DNA of 64,000 nt from an uncultured Mycoplasmatota bacterium. GTDB lineage: Bacteria; Bacillota_I; Bacilli_A; RF39; UBA660. The notes under the pieces are model-generated. The model saw nothing but the letters and a program-made list of their open reading frames with translations, had not been told where the DNA came from and made no database searches. Positions 19,437 through 41,561 of this stretch are shown piece by piece (the first letter of the stretch is position 1; each line of letters starts with the position of its first letter). The position numbers and the translations under genes were made by a program. The stretch covers positions 198,725 to 262,724 of the forward strand of contig CANTCQ010000001.1 in NCBI GenBank assembly GCA_947652325.1, in the 5' to 3' direction.

Positions 19437-20143
19437 TATGTTACAATATATTTGTGATGTATAGTGAGTAAATTATCAAATGAATTATGAATACTACAAT
19501 ATTTAAGTACTCATAGGAAATATTCTTTACAAGAACTTACTGTAAAGTTAAAAGTTATAAAACGTATGATAAGAACTTATAGGGAATATTGAAAAATCAG
19601 GTATTTTTATCGATGCTATACATGGGCCCTATGGTGGATAATCTTACGTAATAATGCTTTTTTCCAAGTCCTGTTTTTACTTCTTCTGATTGTGAATTAT
19701 TAGAAAAACTAAATGCTTCAAATACAAAAGGACTTACAGATTTGATTTTCAAAATGAAATATTTTATTTCTTTATTTAACGAAGAGTGGCATACAGATAC
19801 TTCCATTTATATAATAGTAAGTCGAGCGATAAAAGAAAAAAGAAAAGCAATTTACTTAATTATATGGAAGATTTAGAACATGTCTTTCTTGTTCGTTTAC
19901 ATTTAATGTATAACCATATTTTAATTTTACAAAGTAACTTTACAGATAGTGGACCTGTTGATTGTGACTTATGGGGCCAAAGTTATTTTATTTGCTGTTA
20001 TTTTGAATTTATATATAGGGCATAATTGTGTGGTAAATGCATCTTTTTTTGAAGCATGTTTCAAAATGTTTATGTGTTAAACCATTAGGAAGCAATTGAC
20101 ATATATTAGAGTTACAAAAGTAGCTCTTTTTTACGCATTTTAC

Positions 20144-20174
20144 TTGACAGCGTGGGGGGGGGGTAAGTTATAAT
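20144..20174 (+). promoter_or_regulatory. promoter with a G10 tract in the spacer (TTGACA-19 nt-TATAAT)
   Basis: The -35 TTGACA is at 20144-20149, the G10 tract at 20154-20163 and the -10 TATAAT at 20169-20174, 27 nt upstream of the ATG at 20201. Confidence 0.7.
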
Positions 20175-20200
20175 ATTTCTGATTTAAGAGGGACTCTGTT

Positions 20201-21853
20201 ATGAATGATAAAGCTATAGAATTTGAAACTACTATTTATAAAGTAAAAAGCTCTTTAACTCGTTTAAAAAAAATAGGTTTACGTATAGAAAAATATGAGA
20301 GATTGGTAGATGAGGTTATAGAAACCTGCAACAAAGAAACTGATTATAATATGGAAAATGTTTTTGGAGCAGCTGAGAATTTTTCAGAAGGTATGTTAGC
20401 AAATAGTTACATAAAAGCAATAAGTAAATTGGAGAGCATATTTTTAGAATTAAGTAAGTATGAAATTTATTTAAAAGTTGCGGCTTTTAATCAAATATTA
20501 AAGGAATTTTTAAATTCTAAAAATAAAGAGAAGATAAAATTTATTGAATTAAAAGACCAATTAAGGGGTTTATTAAATGATTTAAAAAAATCAGGAACAT
20601 TGGATTATCAAGTAGAAGGGGCTTTAGTAGAAGATATTTATTTTTTTACTTATCAACTTATACAAGAAGAAATAAAATGTTTTGGAACGAGTTCACTTTT
20701 AAGTGCTTTGAAACAAGATGAGATTCATAAATACAATTTGGATAAACAAATTCGTAAAGAATTGGAAACGTTAAATTTGAAAAAAGAGAAATATTCTTTA
20801 TTGAAACTTCGAAAAAATGAAATAGATACTCAAGAAGGCCTTCATGCTACTTATTTAGAAGAATACTTTATTTTAAATTTAATGAAAGCGACCATGAGTG
20901 AGCAAGATAGACAAAATTTATTAGAAGAAATGGCCTATGAGATTACCTTTGCTTATAAACAAGCAAAAAATATTGAAAAGGATATAGATAAAAATCGAGA
21001 GAGTATAACTGAAAATAGTCAAAAAATTCAAAAGTATTTAAAAAAAATATACAAAAATATAGCTTTATTTGCCACTTCTGCAAGTATAACTGCAGGATTA
21101 ATTACAGGAAGTTTAACTTTAGGAAAAAAGTGGGCTTGTGAAAAAAAGTACAATGTGACAACTTATTCTTTTAGTTCTATAGATGGAGAATTGCCAATAA
21201 AGACAGAAAAGTCTTATTCTATTGAAAATACTATTCAATTATATGAATATAAACCTTTTAAAGAAGCAGATAGTTTTAATTATTATACGAGAACTGTAAA
21301 CACTTTTGATTTAAGTTCTTTAAAGGAAAGGAATTTAGAGGATTATCTAAACATAAATTTAGAAGCATTAAGAACTATAGTTGAAACAGGTTATGACTAT
21401 AAAGAGAATTTAAGTGTAAGTGATTTATACCAAGAAACACTTTTTATTGTAGAAAAAAAAGTAACAGATGAAGAAAATGTAGAAATAACGTACAATGCGT
21501 TTTCGCATGTTTTGATTTTTCTTGATTTTCTAATAATTGATGTTTTGATAGAATTAATACTGGCAGTGGGAATAGCAAAGATAGAAAATAGAAAATATTT
21601 AGAGTGGAATCTTCTTTCGTCTTTAAGAAAAATGATTGTTACATATAGAAAGATAATTGTCCAAAAGCAAAAAATAGCAAATACAGAAGAAGAACTTAAA
21701 AATTTAGATTTGGAAATGAAAAATTTATTTTTAGAAAATAGAGATTTGTTACAGAAAATACCAACTCTTCTTACTGTTTTTGAAGGGGAATCAAATTTTA
21801 GGGAAGAAGTGGAATCTATAAAAAAGAATTTATCTCGATTTCTTAAATTGTAA
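20201..21853 (+). CDS. hypothetical membrane protein with coiled-coil regions
   Basis: There are two hydrophobic segments (IALFATSASITAGLITGSLTLG and VLIFLDFLIIDVLIELILAVGIA), and the N- and C-terminal parts are coiled-coil-like. Confidence 0.5.
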   Translation: MNDKAIEFETTIYKVKSSLTRLKKIGLRIEKYERLVDEVIETCNKETDYNMENVFGAAENFSEGMLANSYIKAISKLESIFLELSKYEIYLKVAAFNQILKEFLNSKNKEKIKFIELKDQLRGLLNDLKKSGTLDYQVEGALVEDIYFFTYQLIQEEIKCFGTSSLLSALKQDEIHKYNLDKQIRKELETLNLKKEKYSLLKLRKNEIDTQEGLHATYLEEYFILNLMKATMSEQDRQNLLEEMAYEITFAYKQAKNIEKDIDKNRESITENSQKIQKYLKKIYKNIALFATSASITAGLITGSLTLGKKWACEKKYNVTTYSFSSIDGELPIKTEKSYSIENTIQLYEYKPFKEADSFNYYTRTVNTFDLSSLKERNLEDYLNINLEALRTIVETGYDYKENLSVSDLYQETLFIVEKKVTDEENVEITYNAFSHVLIFLDFLIIDVLIELILAVGIAKIENRKYLEWNLLSSLRKMIVTYRKIIVQKQKIANTEEELKNLDLEMKNLFLENRDLLQKIPTLLTVFEGESNFREEVESIKKNLSRFLKL

Positions 21854-31806: not shown

Positions 31807-31909
31807 ATTAAACCTCCTAAAAAGATTATACTATATTTTGTTTTTATTTACTATATAAGGAAAAAAACTTTACAAGGAAAGACAAGAAAAATTTTGTAGA
31901 AAAAAGTAC

Positions 31910-31948
31910 TTGACAGTGGTGGTGGTGGTGGGGGGGTTAAGTTACAAT
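31910..31948 (+). promoter_or_regulatory. promoter homologous to 20144-20174, with a (TGG)n repeat running into G7 in the spacer
   Basis: The -35 TTGACA is at 31910-31915. The sequence G(TGG)4TGGGGGGG spans 31916-31936. The -10 TACAAT is at 31943-31948, giving a 27-nt spacer. It shares TACTTGACAG..GGGG(T)TAAGTTA.AAT with the 20144 promoter. Confidence 0.6.
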
Positions 31949-31978: not shown

Positions 31979-33382
31979 ATGAATTATAAAGTAGAAAATA
32001 AATTTTATGATAAAATAAAACAAAAGGTAGTAGATGGTATTTTTATAGAGGGAAAAAATTGTAGATTTAGTAGATTTGAACAGGATAAGAGTTTGCCTAA
32101 GCATTACGCTTATTTAATGCAATATAAGAATTTTAAATTTAAAGATGTACCAAAAGAAGCACAAACAAAAGAATTCTTTTTAAACATGTTTACGTATAGT
32201 GATGTTTTTAATTATATTAAAAGTCATATAAAAGAGTTTGATAGGCAATTTTTTAAAGATTTGATTACTACTAATCCGTTTGCCTTAACACTTGATAATA
32301 ATTGTTTTTCTATTATTCCAATTGAATATATTGATGAAGAAATGTGTTCTTTAGCTATTTTACAAAATAAAAATTGGTGCGACTATACGTGGTTTTATTT
32401 AGTTGTAGAAAGAAAACCACAAGTGTTAACAGAAGATTTATGGAAATTAGGAGCTCGGTTGTATGCAAGAGAAGTGAATGGTAAAAATAAATTTTTAAGT
32501 ATAACGCCTGAAAAGTATAAAGATTATGAATATTATTTAGAAATGTGTAGTTGTAATTTTAATGAAAATTGTCCATTGGATACTAATAAAGGTCATATTA
32601 TAGACACTATTCCTAAAGAAATTCTTTCTCTACGTTTTGTTTTAGATTTGTTAAAAATAGATATTCAAAGTGTTGCTAGGTTTAATGAGCAAATGCTAGA
32701 GATGAAAATTCCGTATTGTGAAGAAACTGAAAAAATATGGCAGTTTGTAGTACGACATGTTGGAGAGACAATACGGAATATAAAACTAAACGAAGAAAGA
32801 ATAGAATTCTTTTTAAGACATTATGCCAAAGATTCTCATGAATACATTTGGTGTTTTAAAAATAATTTTAAGAGATATTTAAAAAAGAAAAGAAATCTAG
32901 AAGCTCTAAAAAAGACAGAAGAAAGAACCCGAAATTTTTTGGAAAATACCTCAAAAATGGCTCTGAACGGTATTAATCAGAAACTAAAGCAAGGAGAAAA
33001 TCCAATAGATGCCATTAATGATACTAATCAATTGCTTAGGCCGTTTGAAAAATCGTATAGTATTTCACAATTACCCATCAAGTATGAAGGAGAAGTTCCT
33101 ATAGAATTTCGTAAACAATTAGATACAGAAGAGTATTTACAAATGTTTTATAAAAAAATCGGCGTTCAAATTATAGAAGAGGAGGATAATCTTTTTTATA
33201 GCGTAGTGGTGCCAGAAGGTTGGAGCGAAGAAAATGATGGGTGCTGGTGCTATGTAAAAGATGAAAATGGGAATCCTGTGATAGATTATGTTTATCAAAG
33301 CGTATTTTATGATAGAGATGCCTATGTAAAAAGGGTTTATTTATCAAAGTTAGAACAAGAAGAAAATCGAGGTCGAAAGTAA
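31979..33382 (+). CDS. hypothetical cytoplasmic protein with DUF4116-like helical repeats
   Basis: Segments of the type IP.E(Y/I)..EEMC..A(I/V).. recur. No signal peptide is present. The RBS is AGAGGGGG. Confidence 0.5.
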   Translation: MNYKVENKFYDKIKQKVVDGIFIEGKNCRFSRFEQDKSLPKHYAYLMQYKNFKFKDVPKEAQTKEFFLNMFTYSDVFNYIKSHIKEFDRQFFKDLITTNPFALTLDNNCFSIIPIEYIDEEMCSLAILQNKNWCDYTWFYLVVERKPQVLTEDLWKLGARLYAREVNGKNKFLSITPEKYKDYEYYLEMCSCNFNENCPLDTNKGHIIDTIPKEILSLRFVLDLLKIDIQSVARFNEQMLEMKIPYCEETEKIWQFVVRHVGETIRNIKLNEERIEFFLRHYAKDSHEYIWCFKNNFKRYLKKKRNLEALKKTEERTRNFLENTSKMALNGINQKLKQGENPIDAINDTNQLLRPFEKSYSISQLPIKYEGEVPIEFRKQLDTEEYLQMFYKKIGVQIIEEEDNLFYSVVVPEGWSEENDGCWCYVKDENGNPVIDYVYQSVFYDRDAYVKRVYLSKLEQEENRGRK

Positions 33383-38524: not shown

Positions 38525-40956
38525 ATGGAAGAAAAGAAAAATTTCCCAACTAGAAAAAGTGTGGGGGGGGGATATTAGATAAAAAGTCCCTAAATAGTCT
38601 AGAAAAGAAAATATTTTTAATTATAAGTATTTTATGTTTTTCAATATTAATAGTAGGAATAACATATGCGTATATAGCATATTATACAAATCAAAAAGGA
38701 ATCAATGTGTTAGAAACAGATTGTGTACATATAGATATGGAAGATTTAAGTGAAGGAATAAGTCTAAGAAATGCTTACCCCTTAACAGATGAACAAGGAT
38801 ATAATACAAAACCATATCGATTTCGTATAACAAATACATGTAATATAGGAGTAGATTATAATGTAAATATAGAAGTATTTGATATAGCAAATAGAATGTC
38901 TAGTAAAAATGTAGCAGCAAAAGTAGACGAGTTTGAAAAGAAAATATTGACAAGTGAAATAAGTACAACTCCTACTTATACTGGAGATGAAGGAACATCA
39001 ATAGAGAGTTATAATGTATATACAAATACACTTTCACCAGGAGAAAGTAAAAGTCATGATATAAGAATATGGTTAGATGAGAGTGCAGGAAATGATTCTC
39101 AAAATAAAGAATTTAAAAGTAAAATAGTAATAGAAGCAATACAAAATCAAATAGCGCAGATGACATTTAGTGAATATATTATAGACCAAAGCAAGTCACA
39201 AGATAGAGGAATAGAGAGAATAGAACATGAAGCAACAGAACAAATTCCGGCTTTAACGGATTATAGATATACAGGAGCAAATCCAAATAATTATGTATAT
39301 TTTGGATGTAGTGAAAATTGTACAGAAGAGAATCTATATCGAATTATAGGAGTAATACCAACACAAAGTAGCGAAAATGGAGCATATGAAAACCGTGTAA
39401 AGTTAATCAAAGCAAGTGAATATATTGGCCCTAATGCTGAGGATGGTTCAAGATTTACTCCAAGTGGAAAAGGATATAAATGGAATGCAGATGGAAATAA
39501 TAAATGGGAAGAAAGTACATTAAAAGAAGAGTTAAACACAGAATACTGGAATAGTTTAGAAGAATATCAAAAATATATAGAACCTTCAAAATGGTATTTA
39601 GGGTCTCCACTTGGTGAGAAACAATCAACATATACTTCTGAACAATTTTATAAAGAAGAGCGAAGCAAAACGCCAGGATATAGTCAGGGAGCAATATCCT
39701 ATATAGATAATATAGGATTAATGTACCCAAGTGATTATGGCTATTCACTAGAAAAAAAATATAGAGAACCATCTATTTATGAAAACGAATTACATTATAG
39801 GAGTCAAGCATGGCTATATAATATGGAAGAAAAATATTATGAATGGACAATAACTCCAGAAAATACAAGTCAGGATTTTGTAAAAGTGTGGGTAGTCGAT
39901 AAACAAGGAAGAATAGATTATTATCGAGCTTATTATGATAATTATTTATTTATTGCCCGACCAACCTTTTATTTAAAGAGTAGTATAATGTATGGGGGAG
40001 GATTAGGTACAAAAGAAGAACCATTTCAAATAATAGAAAATTCCAATCGAATGAGTGATTATATAATAGCAAAAAGTACAACCGATGAGACAATAGAAAA
40101 AGTGAGTCATGAAGCAACAGAACAAACTCCGACTTTAACGGATTATAGATATACAGGAGCAAATCCAAATAATTATGTATGTTTTGGCTATGAAGGAGAA
40201 AGATGTCCAGATGAAAATTTATATCGAATTATAGGAGTAATACCAACGCAAAGTAGCGAAAATGGAGCATATGAAAATCGTGTAAAGTTAATCAAAACAA
40301 GTAATTATGTAGAAAATGAGAGTGGTTATTTAGAAAATAGTATTGGTCCTGCTACTCCAGAAGGAACAGGTTATCGTTGGAATAAAGATGCTAATATTAA
40401 TAATTGGGAAGAGAGTTCATTGAATACTAAAGTTTTAAATAATATATATTGGAACTCTTTAGGAGAATATCAAAAATATATAGAATCATCAAAATGGTAT
40501 TTAGGTTCATTAAACAATGATATGTATGAATTATATACAGTAGGAAATTTATATAATGTAGAAAGAAGCAATGTTTCTTCTTATAGTGGTGGAGCAACAT
40601 TCTACATAAGTAATATTGGTTTAATGTATCCAAGTGATTATGGATATTCCATATCAAAAGAATATTGGAATAATAATAGTATAAGTAATTATCAAAATGA
40701 ATATATAAAAAATGCATGGTTATATAATTTAAGTGGTGGAGAATACGTAGAATGGTTGATTTCTGCTTCACATGATTTTCCAAATGGCAGTGTTTCTGCA
40801 TGGAATATTGGATATACTGGAAATATTTGGGGAGGTTTTAGTGTAATTTATTTTGCTCAAGTGTATGCAATACGTCCTACCTTTTATTTGAAATCTAGTG
40901 TATTATTTCGAGGAGGAGAAGGAACAATAGATAATCCTTATTATTTATCAATATGA
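38525..40956 (+). CDS. phase-variable surface-anchored protein with two tandem modules of about 294 aa, currently frameshifted at a G9 tract
   Basis: The ATG at 38525 follows a GGAGGA RBS. With G9 the reading frame stops at 38576-38578. One extra G joins it to the long ORF (track entry 38707-40956), which is open back to 38572 and encodes the signal anchor KKIFLIISILCFSILIVGITYAYIAYY. Confidence 0.7.
38563..38571 (+). repeat. homopolymeric G9 tract inside the 5' coding region
   Basis: The nine G residues were counted directly from the sequence. Confidence 0.95.
39226..39420 (+). repeat. near-identical internal direct repeat, copy 1 (partner at 40108-40300)
   Basis: CATGAAGCAACAGAACAAA.TCCG.CTTTAACGGATTATAGATATACAGGAGCAAATCCAAATAATTATGTAT and TATATCGAATTATAGGAGTAATACCAAC.CAAAGTAGCGAAAATGGAGCATATGAAAA.CGTGTAAAGTTAATCAAA are shared with copy 2, 882 nt downstream. 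Confidence 0.85.
40108..40300 (+). repeat. near-identical internal direct repeat, copy 2
   Basis: See copy 1 at 39226-39420. Confidence 0.85.
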
Positions 40957-41228: not shown

Positions 41229-41561
41229 ATGAAAAATAATCGTTGTATGGATACAAGTATGTTTCCTGAAACTAATCAAACAACTACGGAAACAAATATA
41301 AATGTTGAAATGGGTATGGGAATGCCTGGAATGATGGGAATGGGTTGCTCATGTCCACCTCAATCTATGATGTGTCCACCTGTTATGGAATGTCCGCAAG
41401 TTAGATGTTGTCATAGAGTTATTAATTATGAAGTACCTCATATTATTCCTTGCCATACAAAAATGATTAATCATCATGTTTATAGACATACTTATCAACC
41501 ATGTTTTAGTTATTCAGAAGAAGACGAATGTTCTGAAGTTTATGACCAAAAATGTTGTTAA
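41229..41561 (+). CDS. Cys/Met/His-rich protein, CotD-like spore coat protein
   Basis: VINYEVPHIIPCHTKMINHHVYRHTYQP resembles the VPHIHP.HT..VNH..F.H motif of Bacillus CotD. The N-terminal half is rich in MGMGMPGMMGMG and Cys. Confidence 0.55.
   Translation: MKNNRCMDTSMFPETNQTTTETNINVEMGMGMPGMMGMGCSCPPQSMMCPPVMECPQVRCCHRVINYEVPHIIPCHTKMINHHVYRHTYQPCFSYSEEDECSEVYDQKCC

Follow-up and report, generated by a model that had tools for sequence, protein, structure and literature searches.

In a stretch of DNA of 64,000 nucleotides (nt) from an uncultured Mycoplasmatota bacterium (contig CANTCQ010000001.1 of assembly GCA_947652325.1, positions 198,725 to 262,724 of the forward strand; hereafter the window, numbered from its first letter), we analyzed a promoter that carries ten consecutive G residues (G10) between its −35 and −10 hexamers and precedes a gene encoding a protein of 550 amino acids (aa). 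The results suggest that this G tract probably acts as a ruler, driven by slippage, which sets the transcription of the 550-aa gene. Sequence establishes the promoter's anatomy, the restriction of polymorphism to the tract, the ancestral origin of the hexamers and the retention of the tract in related lineages.

In the proposed mechanism, slipped-strand mispairing during replication would add or remove single G residues and thereby shift the distance between TTGACA and TATAAT. The ruler would be housed in a sigma-A (sigma-70-type) promoter: a G8 tract would create the optimal spacer of 17 nt and allow full transcription, G9 would give 18 nt and reduced transcription, and G10, the allele of the window, would give 19 nt, with transcription weak or close to OFF. 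The predicted outcome is a heritable and reversible heterogeneity between cells in the amount of a membrane-associated protein, i.e. a contingency locus. We infer an effect on transcription, switching within a clone together with its rate and reversibility, and a benefit to the cell.

Anatomy of the promoter upstream of the 550-aa gene

The region 20144–20203 reads TTGACA GCGT GGGGGGGGGG TAAGT TATAAT ATTTCTGATTTAAGAGGGACTCTGTT ATG. It comprises, on the forward strand, (i) a perfect −35 hexamer (TTGACA, 20144–20149), matched by TTGAC(A/T) at the corresponding site in orthologues, (ii) a spacer (GCGT-G10-TAAGT, 20150–20168) of 19 nt in the window and 17 or 18 nt elsewhere, within which the hypermutable homopolymer occupies 20154–20163 (alleles seen: G8, G9 and G10), (iii) a perfect −10 hexamer (TATAAT, 20169–20174), preceded by AGT and lacking the TG motif of an extended −10, (iv) a ribosome-binding site (AAGAGGGA, 20186–20193), located 8 nt before the ATG, and (v) the open reading frame (ORF) of 550 aa (20201–21853, ATG at 20201), the gene that would be controlled in the proposed model. 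An earlier reading of the window, made from its letters alone (the sequence-only reading), had placed TTGACA and TATAAT 19 nt apart with G10 at 20154–20163 inside the spacer, and this arrangement was reproduced exactly.

A scan of the window located a terminator-like hairpin (AGAGTTAC-AAAA-GTAGCTCT) with a T run after it at 20108–20133 of the forward strand; it is kept in five loci of the same species (L001–L005, described below) and in a sister species. Since this structure lies directly upstream, the 550-aa gene should rely on its own promoter at 20144–20174, with the hairpin insulating it against read-in transcription.

The consensus promoter scan of the window omitted the TTGACA-19-TATAAT site, because it accepts only spacers of 16–18 nt. 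Two other candidate −35 sequences were rejected: GACAGC, located 17 nt 5′ of the −10 hexamer in the G10 allele, is a poor match, and a second TTGACA (20096–20101), which precedes the terminator-like hairpin, is not paired with a −10 hexamer.

The window contains 27% GC and 16.3% G. It holds only four G runs of at least 6 nt (G10, G9, G7 and G6), and its longest C run does not exceed 5 nt. An independent-base model predicts 0.0007 G runs of at least 10 nt in the window and a first-order Markov model 0.0013, so that chance falls far short of accounting for the G10 tract. The description of the tract as highly non-random in an AT-rich genome, given in the sequence-only reading, is borne out by these values.

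Judged from the sequence, the region 20144–20174 has all of the testable features that define the promoter-spacer class of phase variation. A simple-sequence repeat of hypermutable size (a homopolymer of at least about 8 nt) is present in the form of G10, and it is placed between the −35 and −10 hexamers, as in that class. The length of the repeat varies among near-identical genomes while its flanks hold constant, and the observed spacers cover the optimal 17 nt as well as the suboptimal 18 and 19 nt.

Tract-length variation between samples

An exact-sequence look-up of the 550-aa protein identified 22 contigs, in all of which the ORF was intact and identical, and returned five distinct places (L001–L005). 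These loci, originating from five samples, carried G10 in L001 (spacer of 19 nt), G9 in L003 and L004 (18 nt), and G8 in L002 and L005 (17 nt). The comparison of tract length among strains that the sequence-only reading had proposed thus revealed a tract that is not invariant (G8 twice, G9 twice, G10 once), and the G8 allele with the 17-nt spacer, which it had derived by calculation, occurs in L002 and L005. A further look-up with the upstream 165-aa protein yielded no additional tract alleles (two of its contigs stop before the tract, and the third is the L002 contig).

The promoter regions of L001–L005 differed from each other only in tract length and in one single-nucleotide polymorphism (SNP), located in the upstream hairpin of L004. 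Beyond the tract, the five loci had 0–6 SNPs relative to the window; L001, a 279-kb ENA contig, showed a single mismatch across 7.6 kb and is very probably the contig from which the window was taken or an almost identical copy. In L003 (4.7 kb) and L005 (2.4 kb) no SNPs were found, and the tract lengths differed nonetheless, which indicates that the tract mutates much faster than point substitutions accumulate.

As a control, the window was aligned with 26 loci of the same species, about 90 kb in total; all but the rearranged L007 were at least 99.6% identical. Three positions had indels (20154, 31930 and 38562), and these correspond to the three long G tracts. The sole indel elsewhere was a 1-nt T insertion in L007, placed inside a decayed gene copy with two large deletions. 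In A/T runs of 7–9 nt, there were 0 indels in 166 comparisons. The confinement of indels to G tracts, with none in A/T runs, makes a generic homopolymer artefact very unlikely.

Contig ends fall at, or close by, the G tracts in several cases: L003 has its start at 20146, and the ends of L026 and L016 are at 38571 and 31964. In addition, L035 starts with an artefactual C48 run exactly where its relative L057 has G10. These breaks are suggestive but ambiguous, being compatible with heterogeneity of tract length within the samples or with difficulties of the assembler at poly-G.

Ancestry of the promoter and of the G tract

Homologues of the 550-aa protein were sought by a word-index search, which gave 9 clusters, and by a profile search, whose 377 representatives are almost all about 550 aa long; orthologue loci were drawn from GTDB genomes and from the exact look-ups. 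The hosts are metagenome-assembled genomes (MAGs) of uncultured 'Bacilli' or 'Tenericutes' with 22–29% GC, originating from the guts of mouse (MGBC), rabbit ('Lapin') and human (HGM).

All of the tract-free orthologues (28–47% identity) had a near-consensus promoter, positioned as far from the start codon as in the window. The spacer was of 17 nt in seven lineages and of 18 nt in one. The promoters were TTGACT-17-TATAAT (L038, L041 and L043), TTGACA-17-TATAAT (L040 and L042), TTGCTA-17-TATAAT (L039), TTGAAA-17-TACAAT (L056) and TTGACA-18-TATAAT (L037 and L048). Because the hexamer pair is kept at an equal distance from the start codon in these orthologues, comparison identifies the TTGACA/TATAAT pair of the window as the ancestral and apparently genuine promoter of the 550-aa gene, with 17 nt as the norm of the family.

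Most of the tract-free orthologues also possess a TGn extended −10 motif, in place of which the window has AGT. Loss of an extended −10 motif makes a promoter lean more on a correctly spaced −35 box. The promoter at 20144–20174 should therefore depend on the placement of its −35 hexamer, and hence be sensitive to spacer length.

Tracts of G10 were also found in related lineages. The sister species, whose protein is 73% identical, carries TTGACA-GTC-G10-TTAAGT-TATAAT (spacer of 19 nt, five contigs). In two lineages with 46% identity the tract directly abuts the −10 hexamer, giving spacers of 18 nt: TTGACT-TTTTGATT-G10-TATAAT in P0003 and TTGACA-AATGCTTC-G10-TATAAT in P0006. These G10-bearing lineages differ in gene neighbourhood. 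A further relative, P0005, has a SufBD neighbour in common with P0003, yet it is without the G tract, from which we conclude that tracts have been gained or lost over short evolutionary time scales. Read in this way, the comparative series would record the birth of a switch, with a consensus 17-nt promoter in distant relatives and G10 acquired in some lineages. The interpretation of the tract as a promoter phase-variation switch, put forward in the sequence-only reading, gains support from this comparison, i.e. from the variable tract, the ancestral 17-nt promoter and the related G10 lineages.

Other G-rich tracts in the window

A second tract, G9, is present at 38563–38571 (forward strand), 13 codons into an ORF that starts with ATG at 38525. 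In the G9 allele, which is that of the window, a stop follows after 17 codons (OFF); this allele was found in five loci (four by pattern match, and L020 aligned without an indel). In the G10 allele, found in four loci, translation can read through to a signal-anchored protein of about 810 aa, ending at 40956 (ON). The ratio of G9 to G10 among samples was 5:4, the tract taking only the values 9 and 10, and the gene calls at 38525–40956 follow the reading frame set by the tract allele. These alleles clearly point to a translational poly-G frameshift switch, and to an organism that uses poly-G slippage in this manner; the occurrence of such a switch in the same genome raises the prior for a promoter-spacer switch. 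We also observed that the 749-aa ORF contains an internal duplication (39169–39425 versus 40054–40308, about 86% DNA identity). The duplicated domain, with the motif TDYRYTGANPNNYV...NLYRIIGVIPTQSSENGAYENRVKLIK, is present in two copies and had no match in Pfam.

The third tract lies in another promoter (promoter 2; 31910–31948, forward strand), composed in the window of TTGACA-G(TGG)4-G7-TTAAGT-TACAAT with a 27-nt spacer, and located upstream of an ORF of 467 aa (31979–33382). Including its 5′ flank, it reads ACTTGACA-G(TGG)4-G7-TTAAGT-TACAAT. In 11 assemblies the flanks were identical, and the tract consisted of (TGG)4–5 plus G7–10. The spacers were of 27 nt (five assemblies), 29 nt, 31 nt (two), 32 nt (two) and 33 nt, and never near 17 nt. 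This promoter also varies by whole TGG units, and the variation tracks the SNP haplotype. Orthologues of the 467-aa gene have ordinary promoters (TTGACT-16-TATAAT and TTGACA-17-TAGAAT). Promoter 2 looks like a runaway expansion or a locked-OFF promoter, from which the 467-aa gene should be nearly silent. In L007 (SRR31203363; window positions 32144–33308) this gene has lost about 725 bp and 128 bp in two deletions, has gained 1 nt by insertion and shows more SNPs; it appears to be decaying.

The two G-rich promoters have a common design, AC-TTGACA-G...G-T(T)AAGT-TAYAAT. The 550-aa and 467-aa proteins are not paralogues; gene duplication therefore does not account for the promoter design that they have in common. 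The flanks of the tracts form an imperfect inverted repeat (ACTTGAC versus GTTAAGT, 6/7), at 31908–31914 and 31936–31942 in promoter 2 and at 20142–20148 and 20163–20168 in the promoter of the 550-aa gene. The (TGG)n-Gn sequence of promoter 2 was predicted to form a 2-tetrad G-quadruplex, whereas none was predicted for the plain G8–G10 tract of the first promoter; both predictions apply RNA parameters to a single strand, not to duplex DNA.

A scan of Joint Genome Institute (JGI) metagenomes for TTGACAG...GGGGGKTAAGTTAYAAT gave four contigs (L044–L047) and no new alleles or copies of the cassette. The four contigs, which match TTGACAGACGTTGCTCACCGGGGGGTAAGTTATAAT, carry one identical sequence of 42–44% GC that is unrelated to the organism, and they were set aside as a chance match.

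Weighing of the alternative explanations

Several observations weigh against a finely tuned switch in the promoter of the 550-aa gene. The length variation was seen between samples, in assembled consensus contigs, rather than within a clone. Polymorphism of the tract was not found outside the species of the window: the sister species had G10 (19 nt) in 5/5 contigs, a small sample in which some contigs are probably from the same runs, and one of the lineages with 46% identity had G10 (18 nt) in 2/2 independent contigs, again a small sample. The spacer of promoter 2 measured 27–33 nt in 11/11 assemblies, which demonstrates that this genome does not keep every tract at a length that holds the spacer near 17 nt, and therefore that such tracts are not always finely tuned switches. 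Finally, two perfect hexamers separated by 19 nt may keep appreciable activity, in which case the tract would serve as a volume control rather than as an ON/OFF switch.

Some of these observations also bear on the possibility that the tract is hypermutable but neutral or decaying, so that its length drifts while the gene is adequately expressed at all lengths or is heading to silencing. The drift of promoter 2 in all 11 assemblies and the large deletions in its gene in L007 fit this explanation, as do the fixed 19-nt spacer in every contig of the sister species and the uncharacterised family to which the 550-aa protein belongs. We nevertheless regard it as unlikely, for the spacers of the 550-aa gene measure 17, 18 and 19 nt exactly and straddle the optimum instead of wandering, four lineages with protein identities as low as 46% keep G10 despite its mutational instability, and the ORF is intact in all 22 contigs. 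It is hardly credible that the differences in length are artefacts of sequencing or assembly, arising from homopolymer errors in low-coverage Illumina metagenome assemblies. Several contigs do have a coverage of only 3–5x, and some break off at a tract or beside one (L003 at 20146, L026 at 38571, and L035 with its C48 run); but no A/T run changed in length in the control alignment, and the remainder of the approximately 90 kb was clean bar the T insertion in L007. Moreover, G8 was found in more than one independent sample, as was G9; the intragenic tract is confined to the values 9 and 10; and the changes in promoter 2 by whole, haplotype-linked TGG units are not of the kind that a homopolymer miscall produces.

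A further explanation is that the G tract acts not as a ruler, but through a DNA structure (a G-quadruplex, or a slipped hairpin between ACTTGAC and GTTAAGT) or through a bound regulator. The G-rich inserts would then be structure-forming cassettes, expanded in promoter 2 to the (TGG)n-Gn sequence capable of forming a G-quadruplex. Extrusion of the hairpin or G-quadruplex would re-register the −35 and −10 hexamers across 27–33 nt, or gate the opening of the promoter, and a switch based on DNA structure would be arising time and again in uncultured gut Bacilli, at conserved genes with consensus promoters. The common design of the two promoters, their inverted-repeat flanks, the quadruplex predicted for promoter 2 and the inability of spacers of 27–33 nt to serve as a simple ruler are in line with such a role. 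However, no G-quadruplex is predicted for the G8–G10 tract itself, the prediction for promoter 2 concerns a single strand under RNA parameters, and in the two lineages with 46% identity the TAAGT arm is absent, the tract abutting the −10 hexamer directly. The series of 17, 18 and 19 nt is already explained by a ruler, and we consider an action through structure or a bound regulator very improbable.

Properties of the 550-aa protein

The 550-aa protein is helical, with hydrophobic segments at about residues 287–308 and 433–457. Its AlphaFold model (mean predicted local distance difference test score, pLDDT, of 67.5) consists of a confident all-helical N-terminal domain (residues 1–285), the first hydrophobic helix (about 287–308), a poorly predicted stretch of 120 residues, a second hydrophobic helix that contains acidic residues (about 433–457), and a C-terminal helical region. 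The expression 'membrane/coiled-coil protein', used in the sequence-only reading, is a fair description of this arrangement. Surface exposure of the middle segment is plausible. Scans of Pfam, NCBIfam, PADLOC and PHROGs and a sequence profile search of the PDB gave no significant match, and a Foldseek search with the AlphaFold model found nothing significant (best E-value 0.19). A PADLOC match to JukA (E = 0.01, 43 residues) was dismissed.

Comparison with known systems

Phase variation by repeat slippage is a textbook phenomenon in Neisseria, Haemophilus, Campylobacter, Helicobacter, Treponema and Mycoplasma. To our knowledge, it is hardly documented in uncultured low-GC Bacilli or 'Tenericutes'-like commensals of mouse, rabbit and human guts. 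The mechanism proposed here is of an already known type (that of porA, tp0126 or vlp), for which these loci and Vmm offer experimental precedents, and what is new is its occurrence in a little-studied gut lineage.

Among the closest known systems is porA of Neisseria meningitidis (van der Ende et al. 1995, cited in PMC5084427), described in PMC7864442 as having a poly-G tract between the −35 and −10 hexamers, whose slippage alters their spacing, with expression peaking at 17 nt. Both cases involve a homopolymeric G tract inside a sigma-70-type promoter spacer. The host of porA is a Gram-negative pathogen, and its product is an outer-membrane porin whose function is known and whose expression has been measured, whereas the promoter analyzed here belongs to an uncultured low-GC gut Bacilli lineage, precedes a gene for an uncharacterised protein and is described from its sequence.

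In Treponema pallidum, tp0126 likewise has poly-G between the −35 and −10 hexamers, with optimal transcription at a 17-nt spacer, while tprL is active with G8 and near background with G10 (PMC7864442), the same tract lengths as those found here. Unlike the present case, tp0126 and tprE/G/J/L reside in a spirochaete and have outer-membrane proteins as targets, and in most tpr genes the tract is located just upstream of the transcription start, not strictly in the spacer (PMC7864442).

Also among the closest systems are vlp of Mycoplasma hyorhinis, with poly-A in the promoter, and Vmm of M. mycoides, with TA repeats in the promoter spacer (PMC10502178). These are transcriptional switches based on simple-sequence repeats in promoters within the low-GC Gram-positive/Mollicutes branch, and several of the MAG relatives found here are labelled 'Tenericutes'. 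The known examples involve A or TA repeats and multigene families of surface lipoproteins; the present one involves G and a single-copy gene that is conserved in many gut Bacilli.

Intragenic poly-G contingency genes occur in Campylobacter, Helicobacter and Neisseria, and in an AT-rich genome, G/C runs of at least 8 nt are rare and concentrated in switchable genes (PMC6321876, PMC2823697). The tract at 38563–38571 is exactly of this translational type. In contrast, the tract at 20154–20163 would constitute a transcriptional, not a frameshift, switch.

On this reading, the 64-kb window would hold three poly-G contingency loci that are independent of each other, one acting on translation and two on transcription, and samples differ in their alleles. 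Stochastic diversification of envelope proteins, e.g. against phage or host immunity, is thereby suggested for such commensals as well, and the tract alleles make the 550-aa, 467-aa and 749-aa proteins candidate phage receptors or immunogenic surface components. The alleles also caution that MAG gene calls at these three loci depend on the phase state.

Neighbouring DNA

A small ORF of 110 aa at 41229–41561 contains very high proportions of Cys, Met, Pro and His (MGMGMPGMMGMGCSCPP...). A suspected identity as a CotD-like spore coat protein was dropped after a Pfam scan gave no match.

The 660-bp region that precedes the promoter of the 550-aa gene (19437–20100) contains no convincing gene, and in its 3′ part it is similar to the terminal portion of a PfkB-family kinase gene. 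At the equivalent position the sister species (L027/L033) has a PfkB-family kinase gene, a WYL-domain gene and a 305-aa gene. The region 19437–20100 is apparently a deletion remnant, which still ends in the conserved terminator hairpin.

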